Origin: a virus
Virus record (IMG/VR): IMGVR_UViG_3300009551_000004
DNA length: 64,000 nucleotides
Strand: one strand, 5' to 3'
This document shows, piece after piece, positions 6,151 to 59,235 of this stretch; position 1 is the stretch's first letter, and every line of letters begins with the position of its first letter. Both the position numbers and the translations under genes were made by a program. The notes below the pieces were generated by a model. It had not been told where the DNA came from and searched no databases. It was given only the letters and a program-made list of their open reading frames with translations.

Positions 6151-6316
6151 ACTGTTCCGCCCATTCCTTTACGGTGACCTTGTGACCACTGGAATCGAAA
6201 TTCGGGTACACGGGCTTGTCGTTGACGTAGTGTATCCAGCCGAACGTCCCGGACCAGTACGCCGGATTGTCGCACGTGTCGCAAAAAGGATCTTTGCGTT
6301 CGATGTCATCCCACAC
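6143..6316 (-). CDS. Small hypothetical protein (57 aa)
   Basis: GTG start inside the last codons of the HAD gene; the C-terminal part reads like real protein (DPFCDTCDNPAYWSG..). Confidence 0.5.
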   Translation of the reverse strand: MWDDIERKDPFCDTCDNPAYWSGTFGWIHYVNDKPVYPNFDSSGHKVTVKEWAEQYD

Positions 6317-6827
6317 TGTACGTTCCGATCTCCCGGTCCCACCACTTCTCGACGTATTCGAGATGGGCCTCCAAAAGGCCCACGTTCTCGTCGGTTCGCA
6401 AAAGCAACGTCCCCGGCCGAATCGACGACCACCGGTGATCCGCTGGCGTGAACTGATCGTCGATCCACACCAGCGGCCGAGCTCCCACCGCTGCCAGCAC
6501 CTCACGCTGCTTCCAGTGCGGCCCCGGCTTGACCCGGAACGGCGGCGTCACCTCGATCACCGGGAGGGCCGGCAAGCCGATCCTCGGCGCGATCTCAGTG
6601 TTGGCGTGCTCGTTCCACGTCGTGGCCCACATCAGATCGGCGCTCAGCGCCTCGGCCAGCTGAACGAGCCTCGCGCCGTGGTCCGGATGCAACCACAAAT
6701 CGAAGTGACTTCCATCAACTGGCACGGCGCGATGCTTGACGAAACCGCGCCGATCGAGCTTGGCTGGATTGCCCAATGGATTAAGCACGCCATCGACATC
6801 CAACGCGACGACGAGACGATCGGTCAT
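6306..6827 (-). CDS. HAD-superfamily phosphatase-like protein
   Basis: VALDVDGVLNP (DxDG motif I) near the N-terminus; WIDD near the C-terminus; ATGA coupling. Confidence 0.65.
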   Translation of the reverse strand: MTDRLVVALDVDGVLNPLGNPAKLDRRGFVKHRAVPVDGSHFDLWLHPDHGARLVQLAEALSADLMWATTWNEHANTEIAPRIGLPALPVIEVTPPFRVKPGPHWKQREVLAAVGARPLVWIDDQFTPADHRWSSIRPGTLLLRTDENVGLLEAHLEYVEKWWDREIGTYSVG

Positions 6828-7021
6828 TTCCTCACCGTCCTTACAGTAATCGCGCAACCGCCATCTCGGAAGCCCATTTCTTTCGTGATCTCGCGCACGG
6901 CGGTCGACAAATGCCTGCCGCAGGTGTAGCGGCCGTCGGTACCGTCCACGTAGAACGTGACAAAAAACGAGGCACCATCGGAACAGGTGAATCCGCTACG
7001 CCCGCGACAAGCTTCTGTCAT
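6824..7021 (-). CDS. Small Cys-containing protein
   Basis: Internal ATG with ATGA overlap to the upstream stop. Confidence 0.55.
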   Translation of the reverse strand: MTEACRGRSGFTCSDGASFFVTFYVDGTDGRYTCGRHLSTAVREITKEMGFRDGGCAITVRTVRK

Positions 7022-11144: not shown

Positions 11145-11500
11145 TCGTCACTCGCCGCCATCTTCGCGCGATGCGCCTTCAGATTTTCGACGTGCTTGAG
11201 CTGCTGCTCCGAGCCGGCCTCGCTCCAGCGGATCTGATCCGTCAGATACTCCTCATACTCCCGATCGCTATGGTCGAGAAGTTCCTGCGGGAAACGCTCG
11301 AAGTATTCCGACTCCTCAACGCAATCCCAATCCTCCTCGTTCAGCTGATGCGCGATTGCTCGCACGAACGGCCGCAGCAATTCGTCGATAACCGGATGAA
11401 CATCATTCACACCCGGCATCGAGCCCAGCGCCGCGCGAACGAGCTTCTCCGCCTCGGAGATCGCCAGGTCCGCGAAATCCGTGCCGCCACACCAACCCAT
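11141..11500 (-). CDS. Hypothetical acidic protein
   Basis: Start MGWCGGTDF after AAGAAGGAAAG. Confidence 0.65.
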   Translation of the reverse strand: MGWCGGTDFADLAISEAEKLVRAALGSMPGVNDVHPVIDELLRPFVRAIAHQLNEEDWDCVEESEYFERFPQELLDHSDREYEEYLTDQIRWSEAGSEQQLKHVENLKAHRAKMAASDE

Positions 11501-14985: not shown

Positions 14986-15317
14986 CGTTCATCACGCCAA
15001 CCGCGCTCGTGCAGAATCGCCCACTTCTTCGCGATCTCCACGTCCAATTCGACATGCAATACCGCCGCCGTGACGAATGCGGTGATCACCACGTCGGCCA
15101 GCTCGCCAGCCATCTCCTCGAACGTGCCCGTTCGCCGCGCCTCGCCCGCCCAGCGTCGAAACGCGCCGACGAACTCACCCGCCTCCTCGGCCAACGCCAA
15201 CACCTGGCGCGTCTGAGCGGTGTCCGGATTGAACCCGACGGCTTGCAATTTCCGGGCAATGGCGATGCCGACCATCGCCAATTCGCCGACCTCGATCCGC
15301 TCCTGCTGCTCACTCAT
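14982..15317 (-). CDS. mazG: MazG-like nucleotide pyrophosphohydrolase
   Basis: LAEEAGEFVGAFRRW..ELADVVI..I..K...RGW pattern typical of phage MazG-like proteins. Confidence 0.65.
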   Translation of the reverse strand: MSEQQERIEVGELAMVGIAIARKLQAVGFNPDTAQTRQVLALAEEAGEFVGAFRRWAGEARRTGTFEEMAGELADVVITAFVTAAVLHVELDVEIAKKWAILHERGWRDER

Positions 15318-16389
15318 ATTCGGTCACATTCCCCTTGCGCGTCAGGTAGTCGGCCGACACGACCTTCACAATCGCGCGCTCGCCACCCAGCGCATCCGAG
15401 ACGCGCTCCCGCACCGGCCGCACCACGACACCCTCGCGGATGTGCGCCCCGGTGCCGGTGACCTGTTCGCGGCCCGACGCCAGGGACAGAATCGTGTCGA
15501 TGTCGAAGCCGCCCACATAGAGCACTGGCACGAACGGCACGACGCCGTGGAGCAGATCGCCCACCTGGTCATGGTCGGCCCAGAACACCTCACCGTTGAC
15601 GTCCACGCGGATGTCGAACGCGGCATACCCTGGCGTGCCCTTCGTGGTGCCGTACTTCAGATCCTGTACGCCATACACCTCGCCGAAGATCGCCACGCGA
15701 TCGGCCTCCAAATCGGTCAGGATGTTCCGCGCCACCTCTTCGATGTCATACGCGCGCACGGCCCGCCAGTACAGGTTCCGCTCCGACTCCGCGATGGCCA
15801 GACGCTTCTCGGAGAAGCCCTTCGACGTCACGAACAGGCCGCCGTCTTTCGTCACCGTGACGCAACACGCCGAGCCGTGAATCTTCTCCGTGGCGACGAC
15901 GCGCTCTCCCGGCGCGAACACGTCCGGATAGCGCTGAAAATGCTGGATGTCGGTCCACGGCAGCAGATCCGGCGCGGAAATCATAGTTCCCGAGAGATCC
16001 CCGGGCACCTCCGGCACCCACTTCGTGATGCCCAGCGGCTCGGAATAATCCTCGTCGCCGAAGACGCGCGAATTGGCTGCCCAGGAAAGCGTCAATCCGG
16101 CAACCGCCTTCGGCCGGCACACGATGCCCTGGGAGAGCTCACCGCGCAGCCGCACCGCCTTGACGCGATTGGCCTGCTTGCCGGCGAGGCGGCCGACCAG
16201 CCCCAACTCCTCGATCAGCTCCGTCGGCAGGATCGCCTGCTCCGGAATGTAGATCGCGTACTCGCCCGTCTTGTAGACGCCCTTCGGCACCACGGCGCGG
16301 TACAGGCCCACCTGAGCCAGCTCCAGGGCATCCGCATTCGGATGCTCGTGAATCGTCAACCGCTCAGCGGTGACGCGCAGTGTGGACAT
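15310..16389 (-). CDS. RNA ligase with N-terminal OB-fold tRNA-binding-like domain
   Basis: N-terminus ERLTIHEHPNADALELAQVG resembles tRNA_bind/CsaA domains; nucleotidyltransferase motif I EKIHGS. Confidence 0.7.
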   Translation of the reverse strand: MSTLRVTAERLTIHEHPNADALELAQVGLYRAVVPKGVYKTGEYAIYIPEQAILPTELIEELGLVGRLAGKQANRVKAVRLRGELSQGIVCRPKAVAGLTLSWAANSRVFGDEDYSEPLGITKWVPEVPGDLSGTMISAPDLLPWTDIQHFQRYPDVFAPGERVVATEKIHGSACCVTVTKDGGLFVTSKGFSEKRLAIAESERNLYWRAVRAYDIEEVARNILTDLEADRVAIFGEVYGVQDLKYGTTKGTPGYAAFDIRVDVNGEVFWADHDQVGDLLHGVVPFVPVLYVGGFDIDTILSLASGREQVTGTGAHIREGVVVRPVRERVSDALGGERAIVKVVSADYLTRKGNVTEYE

Positions 16390-31091: not shown

Positions 31092-31186
31092 TTGGGAGTG
31101 CGTCGCCTCTGCCAATTGGGCTACCACACCACGAAGCTCGAAGAGGTGAGAGGTGTGGGAAGGGTTCGAACCTCCACTGAAACGCA
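31092..31186 (-). ncRNA. Permuted tRNA-like unit 1 (3' half 31186-31151, 20-nt linker, 5' half 31130-31092; anticodon loop CTCCCAA)
   Basis: The 3' half reads TGCGT-TTCAGT-GGAGG-TTCGAAC-CCTTC-CCACACC-T. The 5' half reads GGTGTGG-TA-GCCC-AATTGGCAG-AGGC-G-ACGCA-CTCCCAA. Confidence 0.55.
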
Positions 31187-31246
31187 CTGACGTTCAGGCT
31201 GAAACTCAAGTTCAGCTTGTGGTCAGGTACTACCTTATCACGTGCG

Positions 31247-42344: not shown

Positions 42345-42561
42345 CGCCGTTGTCCTGACGTAGGCGCTGTACGCGGACGTACGCGGCGTCGAGCTCCTCC
42401 CAGCTGATCTCTTCCGCATTCCCGTTGGCCAAGCGCACCGTGGCCGTCCACTGCGGCGCTCGCTTGATGGCGATGACGTCAGCCACCAGAACCGCGTCGT
42501 GGATCGTGCTGAATCTTGACGGCAGGTAGACAGACTTGCCTACCCAGTAATCCTCGCGCAT
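42334..42561 (-). CDS. Small hypothetical protein
   Basis: 75-aa ORF with promoter and CGGAAACGGAAGGAAG leader upstream. Confidence 0.65.
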   Translation of the reverse strand: MREDYWVGKSVYLPSRFSTIHDAVLVADVIAIKRAPQWTATVRLANGNAEEISWEELDAAYVRVQRLRQDNGDGH

Positions 42562-42588: not shown

Positions 42589-42617
42589 ACTGTATCACAG
42601 GTGATACAGTCTGTAAA
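42589..42617 (-). promoter_or_regulatory. SigA-like promoter (TTTACA-17-TACAGT) overlapping a 20-bp palindrome
   Basis: The palindrome CTGTATCACAGGTGATACAG (42590-42609) fills the spacer and -10. Confidence 0.6.
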
Positions 42618-42633
42618 TATGTGATGCTACAAT
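42605..42633 (+). promoter_or_regulatory. Putative rightward promoter (extended -10 TGcTACAAT)
   Basis: TACAAT at 42628-33 preceded by TGC; weak -35. Confidence 0.45.
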
Positions 42634-42668
42634 CACAGTGACGGAACGGTTAAACAGGAAGGAAACGC

Positions 42669-43838
42669 ATGCGGATCATGATTTTAGGCGGCGACGGCTA
42701 TCTGGGTTGGCCGCTCTCGCTACATCTGTCGGCAGCTGGGCATAACGTGGCGATCGTGGACAACGGCGCGCGTCGAGACATCGATCGTCAGCTCGGTACC
42801 AACAGCGTGGTTCCGATCCTGAACCTGTACAAGCGCATCAATGCATGGCGCGAAGCGAGTGGTGTGTGGCTCAAACGCTATGACGTCGATTTGTTGAACT
42901 ATTCCGACTTGCGACATGCTTTGATCGACTTCCAGCCGGATGCCGTGGTGCACCTCGCGGAGCAGCGCTCCGCACCGTATTCGATGATGGGGCAGCAAGA
43001 AGCGACGTACACGCAGCGGAACAACGTCATCGGCACCCTGAACCTGATTCATGCAGTGGCGGAGATCGATCCTTCGGTTCATATCGTCAAGCTGGGCACG
43101 ATGGGTGAATACGGCACGCCGAACATCGACATCGAGGAAGGTTGGCTCGATGTCGACCACAATGGACGGCATGATCGGGTGCTGTACCCCAAGAAAGCTG
43201 GCTCGTGGTACCACCTGAGCAAAGTGCACGACTCGCATAACCTTGAATTCGCATGCCGTGCGTGGAATTTGCGCGTCACAGATTTGAATCAGGGTGTCGT
43301 CTATGGCCATGAGACCGATCAGACGATTTTGACTCTGGCTCCCGAATTGGCGACCAGATTGGATTACGACGCTATTTTTGGTACGGTGGTGAACCGTTTT
43401 GCCGTCCAGGCGGCACTGGGCCACCCTCTGGCCATCTACGGCAATGGCACGCAGACGCGCGGATTCATTAGCATCCGCGACGTCATGCAGTGCATCGAGT
43501 TGGCGATCCATAACCCGCCGAAATCGGGCGAGTTTGTAGTTTTCAACCAGATGACAGAGGCGTTTTCGATCGTCGAACTCGCCAAGCGGGTTGCGCGCGT
43601 GGATCCGAACGGCACGGGCGTGCGTTATTTCTACAATCCGCGCGTCGAACAGGAAGACCATTACTACAACGTCAAGCACACAGGGTTAGAGGAATTGGGT
43701 CTCGTGCCGCACCCACTTCACGATGATGACATCGCCGCGCTAATCGAGACAGCACAGCGCTATCGTGACCGCGTTGATTTGTCGAAGATGGACCCCACCA
43801 TCTTGTGGCGACCTCGCCACAATCGCCCTATGGCCTGA
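42669..43838 (+). CDS. sqdB: UDP-sulfoquinovose synthase (SQD1/SqdB)-like NAD-dependent sugar epimerase/dehydratase
   Basis: 389 aa. N-terminal GGDGYLGW Rossmann motif. Blocks HLAEQRSAPYSM, YTQRNNVIGTLN, KLGTMGEYGTPNIDIEEG, YPKKAGSWYHLSKVHDSHN, TDLNQGVVYG, RLDYDAIFGT..NRF..QAALGHPL..YG.GTQTRG and NPRVEQEDHYYN.KH match my recollection of SQD1. Confidence 0.8.
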   Translation: MRIMILGGDGYLGWPLSLHLSAAGHNVAIVDNGARRDIDRQLGTNSVVPILNLYKRINAWREASGVWLKRYDVDLLNYSDLRHALIDFQPDAVVHLAEQRSAPYSMMGQQEATYTQRNNVIGTLNLIHAVAEIDPSVHIVKLGTMGEYGTPNIDIEEGWLDVDHNGRHDRVLYPKKAGSWYHLSKVHDSHNLEFACRAWNLRVTDLNQGVVYGHETDQTILTLAPELATRLDYDAIFGTVVNRFAVQAALGHPLAIYGNGTQTRGFISIRDVMQCIELAIHNPPKSGEFVVFNQMTEAFSIVELAKRVARVDPNGTGVRYFYNPRVEQEDHYYNVKHTGLEELGLVPHPLHDDDIAALIETAQRYRDRVDLSKMDPTILWRPRHNRPMA

Positions 43839-43954
43839 ATGAGGGATACAACACCAAAGACGATGATCATAATCGCCGCAAGGCTCACAATGGCGACGGC
43901 AAGACCGAGCATGCCGAATTGCAACGCGGCCATTGTCGGGCCATCGTGATTCAT
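43760..43954 (-). CDS. Small membrane protein
   Basis: 64 aa with one long hydrophobic segment; convergently overlaps the 3' end of the sqdB-like gene. Confidence 0.45.
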   Translation of the reverse strand: MNHDGPTMAALQFGMLGLAVAIVSLAAIMIIVFGVVSLIQAIGRLWRGRHKMVGSIFDKSTRSR

Positions 43955-44064
43955 CTCCGCTCCTTGCGATAGGACGGGAAAAGAAGACCACCGGCCGCGA
44001 TCGCGACCAATAGGCCGAGTCCAGTATAGAGGGTAATGTAGGTCAACGCTTCGTCGTACGACAT
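43951..44064 (-). CDS. Small membrane peptide (37 aa)
   Basis: ATG after AAAGGA; ATGA overlap with the next gene. Confidence 0.4.
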   Translation of the reverse strand: MSYDEALTYITLYTGLGLLVAIAAGGLLFPSYRKERR

Positions 44065-44080
44065 ATCGATCCTTTCGCGA

Positions 44081-44110
44081 AGAAGGGGCCCCCGGCCGGG
44101 GGCCCCTTCT
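44081..44110 (-). terminator. Hairpin terminator
   Basis: 30-nt perfect palindrome AGAAGGGGCCCCCGGCCGGGGGCCCCTTCT. Confidence 0.75.
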
Positions 44111-44119
44111 TTCGTTGTA

Positions 44120-44392
44120 TTACCAGTGCCTGCGCATCTGAGTACCGTGAGGATGCGTGCTGTGCGTCGGGTCGTTGATTTCTCCCCACGCCTTGGCGCA
44201 CTTAGAACTGCCGCACGTCTCCTGATTTCCCTTCCGGTCTTTCAGGCACGCCTGCCCCCCTGCGCGCGTGGGCATCTGACACTTTTTGGACGCTGGGTCG
44301 TTGATCTTTGGCGGCCCTGCCGGCGCATCAGGTGCCGCCTTGGCCATGATTGCGGCGTCGACAGCCTTGAGAGCATTCCAGACCTTACCCAA
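44120..44392 (-). CDS. Small Lys/Cys-containing protein
   Basis: ORF 44120..44401 in the track; the start (TTG or later ATG) is uncertain. Confidence 0.5.
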   Translation of the reverse strand: MGKVWNALKAVDAAIMAKAAPDAPAGPPKINDPASKKCQMPTRAGGQACLKDRKGNQETCGSSKCAKAWGEINDPTHSTHPHGTQMRRHW

Positions 44393-44607: not shown

Positions 44608-46788
44608 TCAACACGCGAGTCGGTACGTGCGGTCTTCGTCTTTAGCCAACACATTCTTCGAGACGAGCTGGCCGAGCAGGTTGTACACCGCGTTTTCGTT
44701 CTTGATGACCACGCCGGCAGTTTTGAGCGCATCCATGATCTCCGCCGAGGTCAATGGCCTGTTGGCACGTCGAAGCACCCAAACGATTTGATCCGCTCGT
44801 CCTGTCGGCGGAGCTAGATCCTTCAATTCCTCCAATTCGTCATCGGGAATATCGGTATTCAGCTCTTTCGCCACTTCACGGAAGGCTTCTTGCTGTATAT
44901 CAGATATGGTGTCGAAGTCGAGTCCCATATCAGCGGCGAGACGTCGCGCCTCGGCGTCGAGGTCTATCTTTTTTTCGACTGGACGAGAATCGACAACCGT
45001 CATCGGCTTCTTGTTCTTGCGCAAGTAGTCAAGGAATTCCATGGTGACCGTGGTGTGCCGCCGGGCGTAGAGCTTGCCGGCGGCGCGTTGCGACCCCTCG
45101 TCCAAATATGTCTTGAATTTCCGACGTGACCAAGAAACCTGACTCAAGGTGAGGCCGTTGTGCAAACGCGGCTTACTGGGGTCATCCTCTTGGATGTAGC
45201 GACCCTTGACGAGAACGGGGAACGGTGTCCCTTCGTCGTCTTTCAGGTAGAACTCGCCCTTGTTTTCCGGCGGCGCGAGTTTGTAATCCCCCAATTGCCG
45301 CCCCAGGGAGAGAGTGTCTTGCGAATTGAAAGCGACGGCGTAACCGGTCTGTGCTTGAATATCGCCTCCCATCGGGCCGAGCTGGTCAATGGTGTCGCGT
45401 TGAGTCAGATACTTAGCGAAACAACCGGCGGATCCCGCGCCTTGCATGTTCATGCCCAGAAGCGCGGATGAGTGATGTTGCTGCCCATCGTATTCGGCGG
45501 TTACCGTCGTATTGCGCAAGGTGTACATCGCCTCTTCGATGATGCACACGATGTCTGGTAGGCCTACCCGCTCATGCAGACGAAGCGACTGTCGATAACG
45601 CGCTACCCGCATGAGGGCGGCCAGACATTCCGCGCTGTCTTCGGGGCCGACACAGATGAAGTCGAAAGGCATCTCCTCGCCGGTGTCGAGATAGATCTCC
45701 AGCCAGCCAGCCAGCAGGTCGTAAAGCTTTTCCGTGCCGCAGATCCACACCACGGCGTTCTCGCAGCGCGTCAGGTATGCGAGAACATTGTGAATGAGCG
45801 ACGTCTTACCCGATCGCGTCTTGCCGATGTACTGCCCGTGCTGCCGCAAAGACAAATGGACCGGCTTAGCGTCTAGCCCGTACCCGATGAGCATCGGCTT
45901 GCGAACATCGGCCCACTCCAATTCGTCCACGAAGGGATATAGCCGGGCCATGATGTCCTGTATGGTCACGGTGATGGTGTAACGACCCGACAGTTTCATT
46001 TTCTGAATAGCAACCCATCGTGTCTCCAATTCCTTGTTCAATAGTTCGGACAATGCGACGGCGATTGGTTCGGAGTCTTCCGTCGATAGGGTGCGGTTTT
46101 TCTGCGCCAAAGCCCTGGCTGGAATACGTACCTTGAATCGAATTCCAAAGAGGACGCCATCCTCGTCGCGCAACGGCTCCGATTCCACGACTTCGATCCA
46201 GCCGCGCTTAATGCGCTTGAGGGCTAGGCGCATGACCATGACGTCGTGACTCTCTGTCACTGCCGGCAACGGGCCGTCAAACGCCTCCAGCACATGCGGC
46301 GCTAGGTCGACCACTCGACCAGCAGAAACGGCCTGAGTGCGCTCCTGACGGACTTTCTGAAGGCGCGGGCGTAGACGCCCTAAGTAGGGGTCGAGAAGCG
46401 CTCCAGCGAGCACCTGGACACCCGTAACGGCCAGAAGGGCTAGTAGGCCGAGAGGAAGTGCGCTCAGGCCAGCGATCGCGAGGCTGATCGCCACGGCGAG
46501 GTCGGCCACGATCGCCGCCATGATGAGCCGAAAGACGACAGCGCGAGTGTCGATCGTCCAGTTGACGAAGACGTCGACAACGTGAACTAGTCGCTCTGTC
46601 GCAACGATGATGATGAACGCTAGGAACACCATTCCGGCGATGGATAGGGCCACCGGAATGGGGAATAGCAGGGAAATGAGCGCGACGACGAACGTCGATA
46701 GGGCACCCAGCACCGGGAGAAAGACTTTGTAGGGAATCATTTCCTCATCTTTCCGAAAAGGATAATCGGCCCATAACGGATTCGTCAT
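44608..46788 (-). CDS. FtsK/SpoIIIE/TraB-like membrane-anchored DNA translocase
   Basis: 726 aa. N-terminal hydrophobic helices, Walker A GKTRSGKTS, and a C-terminal winged-helix-like segment (LTSAEIMDALKTAGV..VYNLLGQLV). Confidence 0.8.
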   Translation of the reverse strand: MTNPLWADYPFRKDEEMIPYKVFLPVLGALSTFVVALISLLFPIPVALSIAGMVFLAFIIIVATERLVHVVDVFVNWTIDTRAVVFRLIMAAIVADLAVAISLAIAGLSALPLGLLALLAVTGVQVLAGALLDPYLGRLRPRLQKVRQERTQAVSAGRVVDLAPHVLEAFDGPLPAVTESHDVMVMRLALKRIKRGWIEVVESEPLRDEDGVLFGIRFKVRIPARALAQKNRTLSTEDSEPIAVALSELLNKELETRWVAIQKMKLSGRYTITVTIQDIMARLYPFVDELEWADVRKPMLIGYGLDAKPVHLSLRQHGQYIGKTRSGKTSLIHNVLAYLTRCENAVVWICGTEKLYDLLAGWLEIYLDTGEEMPFDFICVGPEDSAECLAALMRVARYRQSLRLHERVGLPDIVCIIEEAMYTLRNTTVTAEYDGQQHHSSALLGMNMQGAGSAGCFAKYLTQRDTIDQLGPMGGDIQAQTGYAVAFNSQDTLSLGRQLGDYKLAPPENKGEFYLKDDEGTPFPVLVKGRYIQEDDPSKPRLHNGLTLSQVSWSRRKFKTYLDEGSQRAAGKLYARRHTTVTMEFLDYLRKNKKPMTVVDSRPVEKKIDLDAEARRLAADMGLDFDTISDIQQEAFREVAKELNTDIPDDELEELKDLAPPTGRADQIVWVLRRANRPLTSAEIMDALKTAGVVIKNENAVYNLLGQLVSKNVLAKDEDRTYRLAC

Positions 46789-46808
46789 GGGCCGATTATC
46801 GGTGGTAC

Positions 46809-48170
46809 TCAGTGACGCTGTCGGTAGTCCTGGATGATCTTGGCAACCTCTTCACGCACCTCGGCGTCACGAGCGGCCTTGGCCGTGTTGAGCAGGTGCT
46901 GCTCGTGATCTGCCCGTAGGTCATCCATGCCTTCGGTCTGCTGCGCTAGGTCACGAAACTCGTGAGCCTGAAGGGTTCGCTCCTGTGCCGAGGCGAGCGC
47001 TCGCGCTGCGGCCGTGTCCAGGTATGCGTCACGCGCTGCCTTGGGCAGCATATCCACGGTGGTCACGTTGCTGCTCCTTTTTCTTTGATCGGGAATTGGG
47101 AGAACTTTGTCCGGGTCCGACGTGGGCCATTGCGGCTCGCCCATGCGATGGTAGATCGGCGGCAACCTTTTCGCCTTGCGCACAACGGTAATGCGGGGCA
47201 GGTTATGCGCCCGAATCGGCTTGTAGTGGTCGAGATCCACATTCGGCCACGCAATGTCAGGTGTCTTTGATGCGGTCTTCACTGAATCCTCCGGTCGTGA
47301 CCTGGTTTCCGGCGCGACCGTCGGAGTATCCTTCTTGTCGCCCTTCTTTTTGGTCTTCGTTTTCGGTGGGTCAATCGCGTCAGGCTTTGATGTATCTGGA
47401 ATTTTGCCGGTCAACGGACGCGGCGGCCAGTTGTCCGGCACGCGCGGCCCGGACGTTCCGGCAATCATTCGCCGCTCCCGATTAGGACGCGGCCCCTGGT
47501 TGCCCGGGTTGACCAATGTCTGTGGTGTACGAACGCCTCGCGTCCGGTTGCCGTTCCCGCGCGGTCCCGCCGGAGCTTGAGACCGATCCTGCGACCAGCG
47601 ACGAGACCGCGTGCGACTGGCCGTCTCGCCAGGCTCAGTGGGCTGCGACCGGCGAGACCGACGCCGAGACGGCTGCTGGCCGTTGGTCTCACGGTCGCGA
47701 GACCGCTGACGAGACCATGGCCACCGCTTTGTGGGACCAGTCTCAGACTGCCGATCCTGCGCCGCACGGCGAGACCGAGATTGCGGGCTGCCCGGAGACT
47801 GCGACCGAGACTGAGACGGTCCCGTCGTGCCCCCCTGAGACCGGGTCGCACGATGCCTCTGCGCGGTCTCGGACTGGAAGAAGTGGCGCAACGCCAGGCC
47901 GAGACCAACGAGAATGGCGAGACCGCCAACCGCGATGACGGCCAGCAGCGGCGATTGCAGCCACAAAATCACGCCGCCGACCAGCACAATCGTCACGCCG
48001 AGCGCGGCCGACAGGTGCCAAGGCGGCACGCCGGTCGTCCTGGTCTCGGCCTTTGCCCTGGTCTCCGGCTTCGACGTCTTGGTCTCAGGCTTGGTCTCGG
48101 TCTCACCTTCGACGAGATCCGCAGGTGAAACTGGCTTTGCCGAGGCGAAAACCGTGTCCTCGTCGCTCAT
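46809..48170 (-). CDS. Membrane protein with Glu-Thr and Arg-Ser low-complexity tracts
   Basis: 453-aa ORF with one hydrophobic segment; carries most of the GGTCTC/GAGACC copies. Confidence 0.7.
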   Translation of the reverse strand: MSDEDTVFASAKPVSPADLVEGETETKPETKTSKPETRAKAETRTTGVPPWHLSAALGVTIVLVGGVILWLQSPLLAVIAVGGLAILVGLGLALRHFFQSETAQRHRATRSQGGTTGPSQSRSQSPGSPQSRSRRAAQDRQSETGPTKRWPWSRQRSRDRETNGQQPSRRRSRRSQPTEPGETASRTRSRRWSQDRSQAPAGPRGNGNRTRGVRTPQTLVNPGNQGPRPNRERRMIAGTSGPRVPDNWPPRPLTGKIPDTSKPDAIDPPKTKTKKKGDKKDTPTVAPETRSRPEDSVKTASKTPDIAWPNVDLDHYKPIRAHNLPRITVVRKAKRLPPIYHRMGEPQWPTSDPDKVLPIPDQRKRSSNVTTVDMLPKAARDAYLDTAAARALASAQERTLQAHEFRDLAQQTEGMDDLRADHEQHLLNTAKAARDAEVREEVAKIIQDYRQRH

Positions 48171-48571
48171 TTCCTCGTCACCTCCTCGGTCGTTTCTCGC
48201 GTTGATATGACTGTATCACGCCGGTCTCGCGAATTCACTCATTGAGACCAATGCGAGACCGCGCCCCGGTCTCATGAGACCGGGGCGCGGCAGTCTCAGG
48301 ATGCCTGTTCGCGCTTAAACCGTTCCCGCGCCGTGGCCAGGCGACGGGCGACGGTGGCCCTGCTCAGGTGGGCCGGCAGCGACTGCTGCGCTTCGGGCAG
48401 CTTCAGTGCGTCAGGGTCGTTCCGCTCGACGATGAATCGGAGCAGGGTCTCCACCTCGGCCTCTGCGTCGGCACCGCGCACGGTGAGCGAAATCGTCTTA
48501 GTCTCACTCCTGACCTGCGGAATCTCAGCGGTCTCAACAGTCTCAGCAAGCGGGGTCTCATCCACGGTCTC
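47579..48571. repeat. Dense GAGACC/GGTCTC hexamer cluster (about 26 perfect copies)
   Basis: Counted by eye: 13 GAGACC and 13 GGTCTC on the plus strand, spanning two coding regions and the intergenic spacer. Confidence 0.85.
48261..48288 (-). terminator. Hairpin terminator built from the hexamer motif
   Basis: GCGCCCCGGTCTC-AT-GAGACCGGGGCGC. Confidence 0.7.
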
Positions 48572-49396
48572 ACCGATCGGGAACGGTGCGCCGTAGTCCG
48601 CGCCCCACACGCGCTGAGCGTTGGTGGCGAGCTGCATACCGCGCAGGAAGCGCTCCAAAGCGGCGGGGTCGTCCATGATGCCGGCGGCGGCGAGCGCCTT
48701 AACGAATCGGCGAACGTCCTTTTCGGTGCCCTCGGTGGTCATGCGGATGTGCGTGGCCTTGGCCAGCGCGCGTTCCCGGGCGATCGTCTTCGCGTCACGG
48801 CCCTCGTCGCCGAGGCCGAACAGCGCCAGGAAGCGCTCACGGAATTCGCGGGCAAGGCGGACGAACATCGAGTCGTCGCGGATCTCCAGCCCGCGCACCT
48901 CGATACCGAGCGCGAGGTGCAACATCACCAGGCTCAGGATCGGGCCGAGGATGACGCGGGCGATGCCCACCCAGAAGCCGCTCAGACTCCACGCCATGTA
49001 CGCCGAGACGGCGCAGAGCGTCCACGCGATCAGGCGAGCTGGCCCAGGGTGGCCGTGCTGACGGATCGAAGCGCGCATGCCCCAACCGCAGGCGATCTGC
49101 GCGAGCTCCAAGACGAAGAACATGATGCCGCGCACCCAGAGCGTGTTCACCTCCAGGACGACACCGAAGAACAGCCAGCTCGTGTCGACGGACACCGCCA
49201 TGCCGGCGACGGCCGCGAGGTAGAACAGGCCGGCACCCTTGGCCGCGTCGTCGCGAGCGGCGAGAAAGGCGCGAACGGCGTTGCCGGCCGTCTTGACGAT
49301 CGCGTACACCGTCCACGTGCCCGCTAGGGCGAGAATCGCGTAGAGGGCGGAAACCGCCCACCCCGGTGCGCTGTTCAGAAGCTCGTTGATGCTCAT
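48296..49396 (-). CDS. Polytopic membrane protein (DUF2637-like) with C-terminal HTH-like tail
   Basis: 366 aa with several hydrophobic helices; the tail reads LSRATVARRLATARERF. Confidence 0.65.
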   Translation of the reverse strand: MSINELLNSAPGWAVSALYAILALAGTWTVYAIVKTAGNAVRAFLAARDDAAKGAGLFYLAAVAGMAVSVDTSWLFFGVVLEVNTLWVRGIMFFVLELAQIACGWGMRASIRQHGHPGPARLIAWTLCAVSAYMAWSLSGFWVGIARVILGPILSLVMLHLALGIEVRGLEIRDDSMFVRLAREFRERFLALFGLGDEGRDAKTIARERALAKATHIRMTTEGTEKDVRRFVKALAAAGIMDDPAALERFLRGMQLATNAQRVWGADYGAPFPIGETVDETPLAETVETAEIPQVRSETKTISLTVRGADAEAEVETLLRFIVERNDPDALKLPEAQQSLPAHLSRATVARRLATARERFKREQAS

Positions 49397-53073: not shown

Positions 53074-53148
53074 GCCTTCCTGGCCCAAATGGCAGAGGCC
53101 GTTGATTCAAAATCAACGCAAGTCTGGGTTCGAGTCCCAGGGAGGGCA
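53074..53148 (+). tRNA. tRNA with anticodon CAA (Leu-type anticodon and D arm, but a short variable region)
   Basis: GCCTTCC-TG-GCCC-AAATGGCAG-AGGC-C-GTTGA-TTCAAAA-TCAAC-GCAAGT-CTGGG-TTCGAGT-CCCAG-GGAGGGC-A. Confidence 0.6.
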
Positions 53149-53272
53149 CGTAGTACCGTCATAACCTAGGACATTGACGGAGCACTACCCGCGTACCATA
53201 CGGTCGGCGAAAATACGAAGGTCGCTCCTTCTATCACGGTTTTCGCGGTTCCAGTCCCTGCTGCGCGGTCAG

Positions 53273-53343
53273 GCCGTACAGCGCTGGCTGGGTCGGCGTG
53301 GCTGTAAACCACTCCCGTGGGGGTTCGAATCCCTCGTGCGGCA
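53273..53343 (+). tRNA. tRNA-like, anticodon GTA (Tyr), short variable region and weak D arm
   Basis: Acceptor GCCGTAC / GTGCGGC; anticodon loop CTGTAAA; T arm GGGGG-TTCGAAT-CCCTC. Confidence 0.45.
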
Positions 53344-53355
53344 CAAGAATTACAT

Positions 53356-53429
53356 GCTGGTGTAGCTCAATTGGAAAGAGCACCGCCCTGTCGAGGCGGG
53401 AGTTGCGGGTTCGAGTCCCGTCGCTAGCG
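53356..53429 (+). tRNA. tRNA-Asp (GTC)
   Basis: Canonical cloverleaf with anticodon arm CCGCC-CTGTCGA-GGCGG. Confidence 0.85.
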
Positions 53430-53486
53430 CAAAGTTGGAACTAGTCTTTCCCCGAAAACCAATCTTCCAATGTTCCAACTTTATCC

Positions 53487-53560
53487 GGCCTCGTAGCTCA
53501 GTTTGGGAGAGCATTCGGTTGAAACCCGAAGGGTCGCAGGTTCGAATCCTGCCGGTGCCA
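53487..53560 (+). tRNA. tRNA-Phe (GAA)
   Basis: Anticodon arm TTCGG-TTGAAAC-CCGAA; one acceptor mismatch. Confidence 0.8.
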
Positions 53561-53569
53561 CTTAAGTAC

Positions 53570-53642
53570 GGCTCCATAGCTCAGTCGGTAGAGCTCCCGA
53601 CTTTTAATCGGGAGGTCGCAGGTTCGAACCCTGCTGGGGTCA
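53570..53642 (+). tRNA. tRNA-Lys (TTT)
   Basis: Anticodon arm CCCGA-CTTTTAA-TCGGG with canonical D and T arms. Confidence 0.85.
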
Positions 53643-53645
53643 CAA

Positions 53646-53685
53646 GTTTCTACTGTGCATTCAACCCTGGATGCACAGTAGAAAC
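53646..53685 (+). other. Perfect 15-bp hairpin between tRNAs
   Basis: GTTTCTACTGTGCAT-tcaaccctgg-ATGCACAGTAGAAAC. Confidence 0.8.
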
Positions 53686-53691
53686 GTCCAG

Positions 53692-53765
53692 AGCGGGATG
53701 GCGCAGTTCGGTAGCGCGCCGGGCTCATAACCCGGATGTCATCGGTTCAAATCCGATTCCCGCCA
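53692..53765 (+). tRNA. tRNA-Met (CAT), initiator-like
   Basis: Anticodon arm CCGGG-CTCATAA-CCCGG has three G-C pairs next to the loop; the 1-72 pair is mismatched (A x C). Confidence 0.8.
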
Positions 53766-54032
53766 CGAGAGGGGCAATGCCGGTTCGAATCCGGTTGGTG
53801 AAAGCATCCGGTCACGGCCGGAGGGTGACTAACTGTCGGCTAACAGGCAAGCCACTCCTCGTTAAACAGGCGCACGGCAACGATCCATCGACACAAGGTC
53901 GGTGACACCTGGCGGTGACGGCCGCCGTGTGGCCTGCTACACCATCCGACATCTTGGCCCGAGTGTCGGAGTTTCATTCAAAGTGTGCGCACACAGGACG
54001 CGGCACGTGGCGTCTATCGGGCTGCCATAACT

Positions 54033-54219: not shown

Positions 54220-54262
54220 CCCCGCTCTGGCGACCCCGAAACCGCCAGAGCGGGGTTTTTCT
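54220..54262 (+). terminator. Strong intrinsic terminator after the tRNA cluster
   Basis: 13-bp stem CCCCGCTCTGGCG / CGCCAGAGCGGGG followed by TTTTTCTT. Confidence 0.85.
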
Positions 54263-54333
54263 TGCCCGATTTCAACGAAAGAAGCGACGTGCCCACCCTC
54301 ACCTCAGTCCCCGTTGCGCTCCGGCCGTTTTCT

Positions 54334-54831
54334 ATGGCGGGTGCGGCGATCGTCTCCAATCCGCAAAGAACTCGATACGACACACCACGCAAACCCAGTA
54401 AGTGGATTCTCGACGTTGACGGCACGCTGCTCCTGCGGCTGCCGGGTGGCCGTGGTCCGTTTGACTGGGATCGCGTGCATGAAGACGTGCCCAACGCACC
54501 GGTCATTCATGTGGTGCGAGCGCTCGCTCTGGCCGGCGACAGCTTCGTTGTGGTGTCTGGCCGACTCGACGTGTGCCGCGACGCGACGATTGCCGCACTG
54601 CATCGACACGTCTTTCTTCAGTCGTCGACAGCCTGGAATTCTGGCGACCTGTTCATGCGCGACAAGGCACGAGAGTTTATGCCTGACCACGAATTGAAGC
54701 GGGAATTGCTCCATCACGAGCTTGTTCCGCGTTACGACATTGTCGGCGCGATCGACGATCGTCACAAGGTTGTAGAGATGTGGCGTCAGGAAGGTATCTT
54801 TTGCATGCAGGTGGCCGACGGAAACTTCTAG
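54334..54831 (+). CDS. HAD-family phosphatase (polynucleotide 3'-phosphatase-like)
   Basis: WILDVDGTLL (motif I), VVSGR (motif II) and GAIDDR (motif IV); the start is uncertain (TTG 54262 or ATG 54334). Confidence 0.65.
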   Translation: MAGAAIVSNPQRTRYDTPRKPSKWILDVDGTLLLRLPGGRGPFDWDRVHEDVPNAPVIHVVRALALAGDSFVVVSGRLDVCRDATIAALHRHVFLQSSTAWNSGDLFMRDKAREFMPDHELKRELLHHELVPRYDIVGAIDDRHKVVEMWRQEGIFCMQVADGNF

Positions 54832-56074: not shown

Positions 56075-56794
<720 letters not shown>

Positions 56795-57741: not shown

Positions 57742-59235
57742 GTGGCTGACACTCTCCTGGAGATCAAGCTCGATAAACTTCGCCGCCTTCAAGAACTGCA
57801 ACGCCAGAAGCGTGAGATCGAAAGCGGAGATGCGGCTCGCGTCGTATGGCGCGAGTCGGCGAGGCCCGATCAGCTTGAACCCGAAGGCGACTGGTTTGTC
57901 TGGCTGATCCTCGCCGGCCGAGGCTGGGGCAAGACGCGGACCGCCGCTGAGCTCATGGCGGAGAAGGCGCGACGCTACCCCGGCGCGCGTATCGCCCTGG
58001 TGGGCCGGACGTTCGGCGACACCCGCGACACCATGATCGAGGGTGACTCGGGACTGCTGAACGTTTTCAAGCAGTCGGAACTTCGTGGCGGCAAGGTCGA
58101 TGGTGCATGGAACCGATCCCTCGGTGAAGTGTATTTGGAAAACGGCACCAAGTTCTTCTCGTATTCGTCCGAAAAGCCCTGGCAACTTCGTGGTCCTCAG
58201 TTCCATTTTGCCTGGGGAGACGAGTCGTGCTTCTGGGCCGACGCCCATAAAGGCACTGCCGCTGACACGACGTGGTCAAACCTGACGATTGCCACCCGAC
58301 TCCCCCGCAAACCGGGGTGGCCTCTGGACTACCAAAGCCGCATTGTGGTGGCCACGACTCCTCGGCCGGTGGCTCTGCTTAAGGTGTCCGATCCGCAACA
58401 AGTTTCTCCCGGCCTAATGCAGCGTGACAACGTCATCGTCACCCGTGGTCGCACCGTAGACAATCTGGAAAATCTCAACGACAACTACAAGGCGAATGTT
58501 GTTGCCCCTCTGCTGGGCACGCAGCTCGGTCTTCAGGAGCTCGACGGCGAGATTCTGGAGAATCGAGACAACGCCTTGTGGAAGCGTGAATGGATTGAGG
58601 CTGACCGCTACGGCGCTGACCGCGCTAGCGAGCTCGATCTGGTACGCGTTGTCGTGGGTGTCGACCCGTCGGTCACCAGCGGAGAAGCCGCCGACCTGAC
58701 GGGCATCATCGTCTGCGCCGCAGACCGTGAAGGTAATGGTTACGTTCTCGCCGATTACACCATGCGCGGCACGCCGAAGCAGTGCATGCAGAAAGTCAAA
58801 GAGGCGTACGACACCTGGAAGGCAGACCGCGTTGTCGCCGAGGTGAACAACGGCGGCGACTATATCGGCACCGTGTTGCGCACGGTGGACGACAACATGG
58901 CATTTCGAGCTGTGCGTGCCAGTCGAGGTAAGAACACTCGCGCTGAGCCGATCTCGGCTTTGTATGAGCAGCATCGCGTGCATCACGTCGGCATGTTTCC
59001 TCAACTCGAAGACGAAATGTGCACCTGGGCACCGGGTGATCCGGAATCGCCGGACCGCATGGACGCCATGGTCTGGGCAATGTACGACCTGAAAGACCTG
59101 ATCGGCGGCTCCTGGCTGGACGCCTACAGCGTCGTTCGATGCCACAAGTGCGAACGACCCTTTACGAAGACATTCGGCGGCAAGCCGCGCGAAAAGTGCC
59201 CGCACTGCAATACGGCTGTTGAGGAGGCCGCGTGA
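57742..59235 (+). CDS. terL: Terminase large subunit
   Basis: 497 aa; Walker A-like AGRGWGKTRTAAE; typical size and position upstream of the portal. Confidence 0.85.
   Translation: MADTLLEIKLDKLRRLQELQRQKREIESGDAARVVWRESARPDQLEPEGDWFVWLILAGRGWGKTRTAAELMAEKARRYPGARIALVGRTFGDTRDTMIEGDSGLLNVFKQSELRGGKVDGAWNRSLGEVYLENGTKFFSYSSEKPWQLRGPQFHFAWGDESCFWADAHKGTAADTTWSNLTIATRLPRKPGWPLDYQSRIVVATTPRPVALLKVSDPQQVSPGLMQRDNVIVTRGRTVDNLENLNDNYKANVVAPLLGTQLGLQELDGEILENRDNALWKREWIEADRYGADRASELDLVRVVVGVDPSVTSGEAADLTGIIVCAADREGNGYVLADYTMRGTPKQCMQKVKEAYDTWKADRVVAEVNNGGDYIGTVLRTVDDNMAFRAVRASRGKNTRAEPISALYEQHRVHHVGMFPQLEDEMCTWAPGDPESPDRMDAMVWAMYDLKDLIGGSWLDAYSVVRCHKCERPFTKTFGGKPREKCPHCNTAVEEAA

Follow-up and report, generated by a model that had tools for sequence, protein, structure and literature searches.

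A predicted UDP-sulfoquinovose synthase gene maintained in a lineage of probable soil-actinomycete phages

The IMG/VR virus record IMGVR_UViG_3300009551_000004 was analysed over a stretch of 64,000 nucleotides (nt), referred to here as the window. At positions 42669..43838 of the + strand it carries an open reading frame (ORF) of 389 amino acids (aa), with an ATG start and the stop codon included in these limits. A first reading of the letters alone, called below the original prediction, had assigned its product to the uridine diphosphate (UDP)-sulfoquinovose synthases of the SQD1/SqdB/Agl3 type, and the gene is named sqdB in what follows. The ORF was found as claimed and every sequence block listed in support of the assignment was present in the translation. 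An antisense 319-aa ORF at 42720-43679 is a shadow ORF of the kind commonly seen in GC-rich genes. The window is that of a phage, with genes encoding a large terminase (57742-59235), a prim-pol/helicase-like protein (110-1642), an RNA ligase and an FtsK-like protein, as well as six transfer RNA (tRNA) genes (31150-31239 and 53074-53766). Viral hallmark genes flank sqdB on both sides.

A sequence search of the PDB gave as top matches the three entries of Arabidopsis thaliana SQD1 (1qrr, 1i24 and 1i2b), with E=3.2e-141 and 474 bits over residues 2-381. BLASTP against SQD1 indicated 55% identity across 383 residues with 5 gaps, and the check by BLASTP and hidden Markov models that had been proposed for the assignment thus returned the SQD1 family over the full length of the protein. 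The next PDB matches were UDP-glucuronate decarboxylase (52 bits) and the epimerase GalE (about 23 bits). Likewise, the window protein scored 461 bits with the NCBIfam model of UDP-sulfoquinovose synthase (NF041015) and 44 bits with the GalE model, so that the generic epimerases named in the original prediction as the competing assignment were the best matches in neither search. The AlphaFold model of the protein (predicted template-modelling score, pTM, 0.83) was aligned by Foldseek to 1qrr with a TM score of 0.82, compared with about 0.56-0.6 for GalE-type enzymes and at most 0.61 for all structures other than SQD1. The segments that SQD1 has in addition to GalE (residues ~30-70 and the long loop between the catalytic Thr and Tyr, GTPNIDIEEG...YPK) aligned to SQD1 free of gaps.

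The features taken as defining the family are an NAD (nicotinamide adenine dinucleotide) motif G-XX-G-XX-G and a Thr/Tyr/Lys triad (PMC4388408). The window protein contains G7-x-x-G10-x-x-G13 and the triad T144, Y181 and K185 (Y-XXX-K), and the three catalytic residues whose verification had been suggested are all in place. Alanine mutants of H95, R101, M145, Y182 and K186 of Agl3 are inactive (PMC4388408), and the mutation-sensitive positions of Agl3 are all retained. In SQD1 numbering, R101, T145, M146, E148, Y182, H183, K186 and Q209, together with H95, are conserved in every aligned phage copy; in an alignment of 13 sequences, H95, R100 and H182 of the window protein are invariant and M145 nearly so. 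Taken together, sequence, predicted fold and catalytic residues strongly support the view that sqdB encodes a full-length UDP-sulfoquinovose synthase of the SQD1/SqdB/Agl3 type (Enzyme Commission number EC 3.13.1.1).

Homologues closer to the window copy than any cellular one were found only on phage-like metagenomic contigs. In the protein search, identity to the window copy was 75% for locus L001, 72% for L002, 69% for L003 and L004 and 64% for L005. L022 (IMGVR_UViG_3300025924_000001, 111.9 kb) reached 62% and has the FtsK-like gene and other neighbours in common with the window, and further copies were located on the phage-like contigs of L025 (P0036) and L026 (P0017). Several independent ENA and JGI samples contain contigs of about 104.8 kb that encode the same protein as the window, among them contig k141_586430 of ENA ERZ27252311. 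In seven sequences (the window, L001, L002, L003, L005, L022 and L026) sqdB lies at the same syntenic site, as a lone + strand gene beside a trio of genes for an FtsK-like protein of 710-728 aa and two proteins of 453-522 and 366-379 aa. A neighbour-joining tree was built from nine phage-context proteins and 112 close cellular homologues, a set biased toward the best matches, and was rooted on SQD1; the nine phage proteins formed one clade in 200/200 bootstraps.

These nine copies have diverged to 59-86% protein identity. The ratio of nonsynonymous to synonymous substitution rates (dN/dS) between the window copy and five phage orthologues was 0.09-0.20, synonymous sites being saturated. The GC content of sqdB follows that of each phage, from 55% to 69%. 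In the window it is 56.5%, against 57.1% for the flanks (39-47 kb minus the gene); the gene is therefore not AT-richer than its neighbours, as had been stated, and only the window mean (61%) is higher. A scan of 185,579 species-representative genomes, with at least 594 homologues, contained no cellular homologue above 62% identity, and nearly all of the best 80 belonged to Actinomycetota. Because of the shared synteny, the monophyly, the dN/dS values and a GC content equal to that of the flanks, the description of sqdB as an isolated moron had to be abandoned: the foreign composition and patchy presence expected of such a gene were not found. Judged from these sequences, sqdB is an old, vertically inherited gene of the phage lineage, maintained by purifying selection. 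As a cell-type enzyme with viral flanks and under purifying selection, it qualifies as a viral auxiliary metabolic gene. That it might instead be a mere passenger, a true moron recently captured from a host and without any role in fitness, is extremely unlikely. Its orientation opposite to that of its neighbours and its own predicted promoter and terminator, described below, would suit a passenger, but this reading is contradicted by conservation in nine phages, by the selection acting on the gene, by its composition and by the lack of a close copy among the species representatives.

The residue directly preceding the catalytic Tyr, Trp180 (codon 43206-43208), is a Trp in every copy of the phage lineage (the window, L001-L003, L005, L006, L022, L025 and L026, L006 being the same phage in a public assembly). 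Of 63 diverse family representatives in which the motif could be recognised, 6 likewise have Trp at this position, and Trp therefore represents a minority natural state of the family. The same residue occurs in four of the six motif-bearing copies from unrelated IMG/VR viruses (L013, L015, L016 and L017). The predicted local distance difference test (pLDDT) of the AlphaFold model is below 50 at residues 149-158 and 173-184, so that the orientation of Trp180 cannot be read from it. The replacement of Phe by Trp at this site might be adaptive for the viral enzyme. It may also be taken as a sign of altered chemistry, in which depletion of UDP-glucose or sulfite, or another product such as the 4-keto-5,6-ene or an adduct with a different nucleophile, would disturb wall synthesis or defence. 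In agreement with this possibility, Agl3 and SQD1 both make the 5,6-ene intermediate without sulfite (PMC4388408), the substitution is lineage-wide and the gene is solitary. However, all residues of known importance are unchanged, Trp is a natural variant and purifying selection on the protein as a whole is strong, and we consider such a departure from the usual reaction very unlikely.

According to the gene calls of the public assembly (L006), all genes between about 32.9 and 50.8 kb of the window are on the - strand except sqdB, so that no other rightward gene occurs within a block of at least 18 kb. It had been recognised as the only rightward gene from the start, with a narrower span of about 13 kb. 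The intergenic region upstream of sqdB is 107 nt long. A Shine-Dalgarno-like sequence, AGGAAGGA, was read on the + strand at 42656..42663, 5 nt before the ATG, and a purine-rich block (GAAGGA, GAAAGGA or GAATGGA) is retained at the ribosome-binding site of the related phages. About 35 nt before the ATG lies a candidate rightward extended -10 element, TGcTACAAT (42625..42633, + strand), with no good -35. It was read by eye from the sequence; a consensus promoter scan, for which a -35 is obligatory, did not report it. The element is identical in L001 and not alignable in L002, L003 and L005. On the - strand a scan matched a sigma-70-like promoter, TTTACA-17 nt-TACAGT with an upstream TG (42589..42617), which would serve the leftward genes starting at 42561 and whose columns TGTAAA and AC..TA.CA are invariant across five related phages.

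The same region contains an inverted repeat, ACTGTATCAC-AG-GTGATACAGT (10+2+10; 42589..42610, no strand assigned), a candidate operator that is unique in the window and was obtained in 0/100 shuffles. The perfect 20-bp palindrome of the original prediction was thus recovered as two perfect 10-nt arms, which are separated by a 2-nt spacer and hence not contiguous. The left arm holds the leftward -10 and the right arm is situated where a rightward -35 would fall, and a dimeric regulator bound to the repeat could shut both promoters. The repeat is partly kept in L001 (7/10 arm positions). It was also considered as a LexA/SOS box and rejected, since CTGT and ACAG are 12 nt apart and not 8, and no known operator fits; the LexA box of Gram-positive bacteria, GAAC-N4-GTTC, is unlike it.

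Downstream, about 240 nt past the sqdB stop, a GC-rich hairpin with a 15-bp stem (44079..44112) carries, on the + strand only, a T-rich tail and is probably the terminator of the rightward transcript. Comparable hairpins are found at the equivalent position in L001 (10314-10345) and L002 (11736-11768), and in L003 a hairpin (11166-11199) directly follows sqdB. With this end point a rightward transcript of about 1.47 kb is predicted, the 3' part of which would be antisense to two small genes. The first encodes a predicted 64-aa membrane protein (43760..43954, - strand) and converges on sqdB, its 3' end overlapping the last 79 nt; a convergent 3' overlap with sqdB is also seen in L001, L002 and L005. 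The second (43951-44064, - strand) encodes a 37-aa membrane peptide with a single helix, is conserved in the window, L001 and L003, and lies under the predicted 3' untranslated region of sqdB. On the other side of the hairpin from the 37-aa gene is the gene of a Cys-rich protein of about 90 aa (44120-44392, - strand), with the pattern C-x-M-x-x-R-x-G-x-x-x-C ... TCG ... C, conserved in five relatives. From the divergent promoter region to the hairpin, sqdB appears to be transcribed alone against the surrounding leftward genes. The traits of an independent transcription unit, as would be looked for in a moron, comprise the opposite orientation together with the candidate extended -10 and the strong hairpin, both predicted at the consensus level.

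The conserved trio beside sqdB occupies 44608-49396 (- strand) in the window and is found in all syntenic relatives. It consists of genes for an FtsK/SpoIIIE-like protein of 726 aa with N-terminal membrane helices, a membrane-anchored Arg/Pro/Gly-rich protein of 453 aa and a multi-pass membrane protein of 366 aa, and it may resemble the TraB/Spd DNA-transfer genes of actinomycete plasmids. The three proteins were examined as hidden transferases and discarded, since each is a low-complexity or membrane protein and none gave a transferase signal.

To look for a partner of the synthase, the phage sequence was searched for glycosyltransferases. No glycosyltransferase Pfam match was obtained among the tested window ORFs (all plausible ones of at least 150 aa and some down to 113 aa), in precomputed Pfam calls over the window-equivalent 32.7-69 kb, or in the gene-called flanks of five relatives (up to 10 kb per side as the contig allows). 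The original prediction had seen no sulfolipid glycosyltransferase near sqdB, and this observation was borne out in the tested window ORFs and in the flanks of the relatives; in the phage sequence searched, no transferase that would make up a sulfolipid gene set accompanies sqdB. Similarly, no GtrA flippase, GtrB-like GT2 or GT-C transferase was detected among the phage ORFs searched, and genes of this GtrABC type adjoin the cellular homologues instead.

These results bear on the possibility that the phage uses the sugar by itself, through a transferase escaping recognition that would decorate virion proteins or phage DNA with sulfoquinovose. In its favour, other IMG/VR contigs carry SqdB within glycan clusters (GT2, GT47, NeuB, cytidylyltransferase, methyltransferase), many phage ORFs have no family, and about a third of the genome was outside our view. 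On the other hand, no glycosyltransferase, hydroxymethylase or thymidylate-synthase-like domain was found in the tested window ORFs or in the Pfam calls over about 47.7-69 kb, nor within 10 kb of sqdB in five gene-called relatives, and the conserved 453-aa and 366-aa neighbours gave no transferase signal. We regard such an autonomous use as decidedly unlikely. Of the three uses put forward in the original prediction, glycosylation of virion proteins and DNA hypermodification thus received no support, whereas remodelling of the host envelope or its glycans is favoured indirectly by the gene neighbourhoods of the cellular homologues.

The closest cellular relatives are actinobacterial sqdB genes, for example those of Kribbella voronezhensis and Saccharopolyspora shandongensis, with about 59-63% identity. 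In both species the gene belongs to a cluster that includes a second short-chain dehydrogenase/reductase, a glycosyltransferase of the GT2 family, a membrane protein of about 500 aa, fused to the GT2 in Kribbella, and a GtrA protein. The GT2 is nearest to dolichyl-phosphate hexose transferase, PpgS, AglJ, ArnC and DPMS, which are polyprenyl-phosphate sugar synthases, and the membrane protein is weakly similar to PMT-type GT-C transferases, below the Pfam threshold. Of the species-representative loci, 57 extend at least 5 kb to either side of sqdB; GT2 was present in 42 of these, GtrA in 41 and both within a few kb in 34. The loci concerned are L010 (4393-9158), L011 (4272-9170) and L027-L106, and one cluster also carries a TauE sulfite-exporter-like gene. 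By analogy, the layout of the actinobacterial sqdB cluster is that of the three-component systems for extracytoplasmic glycan modification (PMC11127046). In a literature search we found no paper on sulfoquinovose glycoconjugates or on polyprenyl-linked sulfoquinovose in Actinomycetota. Most of what is known of sulfoquinovose concerns the sulfolipid of phototrophs and the N-glycans of archaea.

The classical role of SQD1/SqdB is sulfolipid synthesis, and phosphate-sparing auxiliary genes occur in other phages. With an intact synthase supplied by the phage, a host transferase of the SqdX/SqdD type could form sulfoquinovosyl diacylglycerol, which would replace phospholipid and free phosphate for phage DNA. 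However, the phage sequence searched yielded no lipid glycosyltransferase, and the cellular neighbours amount to GT2 (42/57) and GtrA (41/57) with no sulfolipid set, although no search was aimed at SqdX/SqdD. A sulfolipid route is therefore unlikely in our view. Since GT2 and GtrA genes stand beside most of the close cellular homologues, an envelope glycan is a likelier sink for the sugar than sulfolipid, and since no phage glycosyltransferase was found, the enzymes consuming the sugar donor are most likely those of the host.

We therefore propose, with a probability of roughly 0.5, that sqdB encodes an active synthase, a long-standing auxiliary gene of the phage whose product is used as donor by a glycosylation system of the host envelope. 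The enzyme, predicted to be an NAD-dependent short-chain dehydrogenase/reductase, would by analogy with SQD1 and Agl3 oxidise UDP-glucose at C4. Elimination of water would then give UDP-4-keto-glucose-5,6-ene, to which sulfite would be added at C6, and reduction at C4 would finally yield UDP-sulfoquinovose; this chemistry is that expected of a member of the family. The supply of UDP-sulfoquinovose would thereby be raised or restored for a three-component system of the host, in which a polyprenyl-phosphate GT2 and a GtrA-type flippase would act together with a GT-C-like membrane transferase. Outside the membrane, glycopolymers or glycoproteins of the envelope would receive sulfoquinovose from this system, so that the surface of the infected cell would be changed and negatively charged. 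Conjecturally, the changed surface may mask receptors and so hinder superinfection or the re-adsorption of progeny. We infer every step that follows the synthase.

Several points weigh against this proposal. The window protein, with 461 bits, falls short of the curated equivalog cutoff of NF041015 (575 bits); as a control, Arabidopsis SQD1 scored 485 bits and the Kribbella and Saccharopolyspora homologues 472-476 bits, all below the same cutoff, which is therefore uninformative for membership because it shuts out the proven SQD1. The activity of the window protein, like that of the actinobacterial homologues, is presumed from family membership. All 78 close cellular homologues carrying the motif have Phe, not Trp, before the catalytic Tyr, and the lineage-wide Trp could reflect a tuned or an altered active site. 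The search for transferases covered the ~105-kb genome except for some 25-35 kb, the structural and lysis region, and a transferase could be hidden among small or family-less ORFs. The host GT2/GtrA system is deduced from the cellular homologues and not from the phage's own host. Finally, promoter, operator and terminator are predictions at the consensus level, and the palindrome is not conserved past the nearest relative, L001, being absent from L002, L003 and L005.

A more specific version of the proposal, which we advance only tentatively as possible, is a conversion of the surface from the donor side: the lone synthase of the phage would switch on or overdrive a host GT2-GtrA-GT-C system and thereby cause sulfoquinovose to be placed on wall glycopolymers or surface proteins. 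If true, it would expose a polyprenyl-phosphate-sulfoquinovose pathway that has not been described and is widespread in non-photosynthetic Actinomycetota. Known phages achieve a comparable end with the gtrABC serotype-conversion cassettes, which likewise drive an extracytoplasmic decoration of surface glycans via a polyprenyl-phosphate sugar, as we propose here. The gtrABC phages encode the transferases and the flippase and use a nucleotide sugar of the host; the arrangement proposed for this phage is the reverse, with a dependence on host transferases.

Compared with Arabidopsis SQD1, the phage protein shares the GxxGxxG NAD site, the Thr/Tyr/Lys triad, His183, Arg101, Met146, Gln209 and the long Thr-to-Tyr segment, and differs in having Trp for Phe181, no plastid context and no SQD2/SqdX partner. 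Agl3 of Sulfolobus acidocaldarius belongs to the same family; its essential residues, as judged from the published positions and not from the Agl3 sequence, are present, and its product feeds a glycoconjugate (N-glycans) and not a sulfolipid, as proposed for the phage. Whereas agl3 belongs to the cellular genome of an archaeon and to a protein-glycosylation pathway there, the phage has the donor synthase only. The actinobacterial sqdB products have the same domain and residue pattern, with 472-476 bits for NF041015, but their genes stand beside presumed transferases, Phe precedes the catalytic Tyr (78/78) and they fall outside the phage clade.

The enzyme family and viral auxiliary genes for nucleotide sugars are already known, and the synthase is rare in phages. 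No sqdB homologue was found in 50,697 GenBank phage records. In IMG/VR, 12 viral contigs carry SqdB homologues, of which only L022 belongs to this lineage; the other 11 have 46-54% identity to the window protein and a lower GC content, and one of these unrelated contigs is 227 kb long. At the three IMG/VR loci scanned (L013, L017 and L018), sqdB is co-directional among other enzyme genes. It adjoins a NeuB-like sugar synthase and a cytidylyltransferase in L017, with a ribonucleotide reductase and a PD-(D/E)XK nuclease nearby, and an FkbM methyltransferase, a GT2 and a GT47-like protein in L018; in L013, ThyX is near sqdB. A putative UDP-sulfoquinovose synthase has been reported in a Mu-like virus from the Cariaco Basin (PMC7785012; 2020), and this was the only report found in a literature search on sqdB as an auxiliary metabolic gene. 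A search for actinophage or actinobacterial sulfoquinovose synthesis returned no paper. The statement that the enzyme had not been described in actinophages thus stands as far as could be searched, with the reservation that a viral precedent exists both in IMG/VR and in the literature.

If the enzyme is active, this phage lineage would manipulate the organosulfur sugar metabolism of its host, a new item among the auxiliary genes of soil viruses, and it would provide a compact and well-behaved clade of enzymes for probing sulfoquinovose at the actinomycete surface, in terms of receptor masking and surface charge. The more interesting lead is indirect. The conserved phage copy and the actinobacterial sqdB-GT2-GtrA cluster both point to sulfoquinovose glycoconjugates in soil actinomycetes, and a possible polyprenyl-phosphate-sulfoquinovose pathway in Actinomycetota may be exploited by phages. 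Practical value is limited for now because phage and host are both uncultured.

The phage had no nucleotide-level relative when the locus and a further 20 kb of the window were compared by megablast with the 50,697 GenBank phages. Lsr2 and DUF397 genes are found in this phage and its relatives. In the window, an Lsr2-like nucleoid-associated protein is encoded at 36872-37303 (- strand) and a protein with LysM and an Rpf-type transglycosylase domain, probably related to lysis, at 56102-56794 (+ strand); both are typical of actinomycete phages. A DUF7873 protein (31295-32029, - strand; Pfam E=4e-105) adjoins a tRNA-Ser gene, and its third-position GC, at 0.91, is unusually high. Its closest counterparts, from Actinoallomurus, Kutzneria, Streptomyces and Catellatospora, share 61-66% identity with it, and at least one of the related phage contigs, the 32-kb one of L003, carries the gene as well. 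The Lsr2 and DUF397 genes and the affinities of the DUF7873 protein argue for an actinomycete host, which the latter, from sequence similarity, would narrow no further than the filamentous actinomycetes.

No integrase was found among the window ORFs scanned. The 185,579 species-representative genomes hold no copy above 62% identity, and the 78 motif-bearing cellular copies among the loci retrieved have Phe and not the Trp of the phage; both observations argue against common prophage forms, which by itself does not prove a lytic lifestyle. The lineage probably consists of large (~105-112 kb), lytic phages of soil actinomycetes.

Two further features were observed in the phage genome. A portal protein of 1115 aa with a NUDIX hydrolase domain is encoded in L012 (13648-16995, window-equivalent ~61389-64736, running past the window end); next to it comes a 981-aa protein with zinc-ribbon (DZR) matches. 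A scattered set of RNA-repair genes comprises a HAD_SAK_2 phosphatase (6306-6857, - strand), an RNA ligase with an OB domain (15310-16389, - strand), an RlaP nucleotidyltransferase (38313-39077, - strand) and a HAD_PNKP protein (54262-54831, + strand). Together with the six tRNA genes, this set suggests a counter-defence against host nucleases that cleave tRNA.

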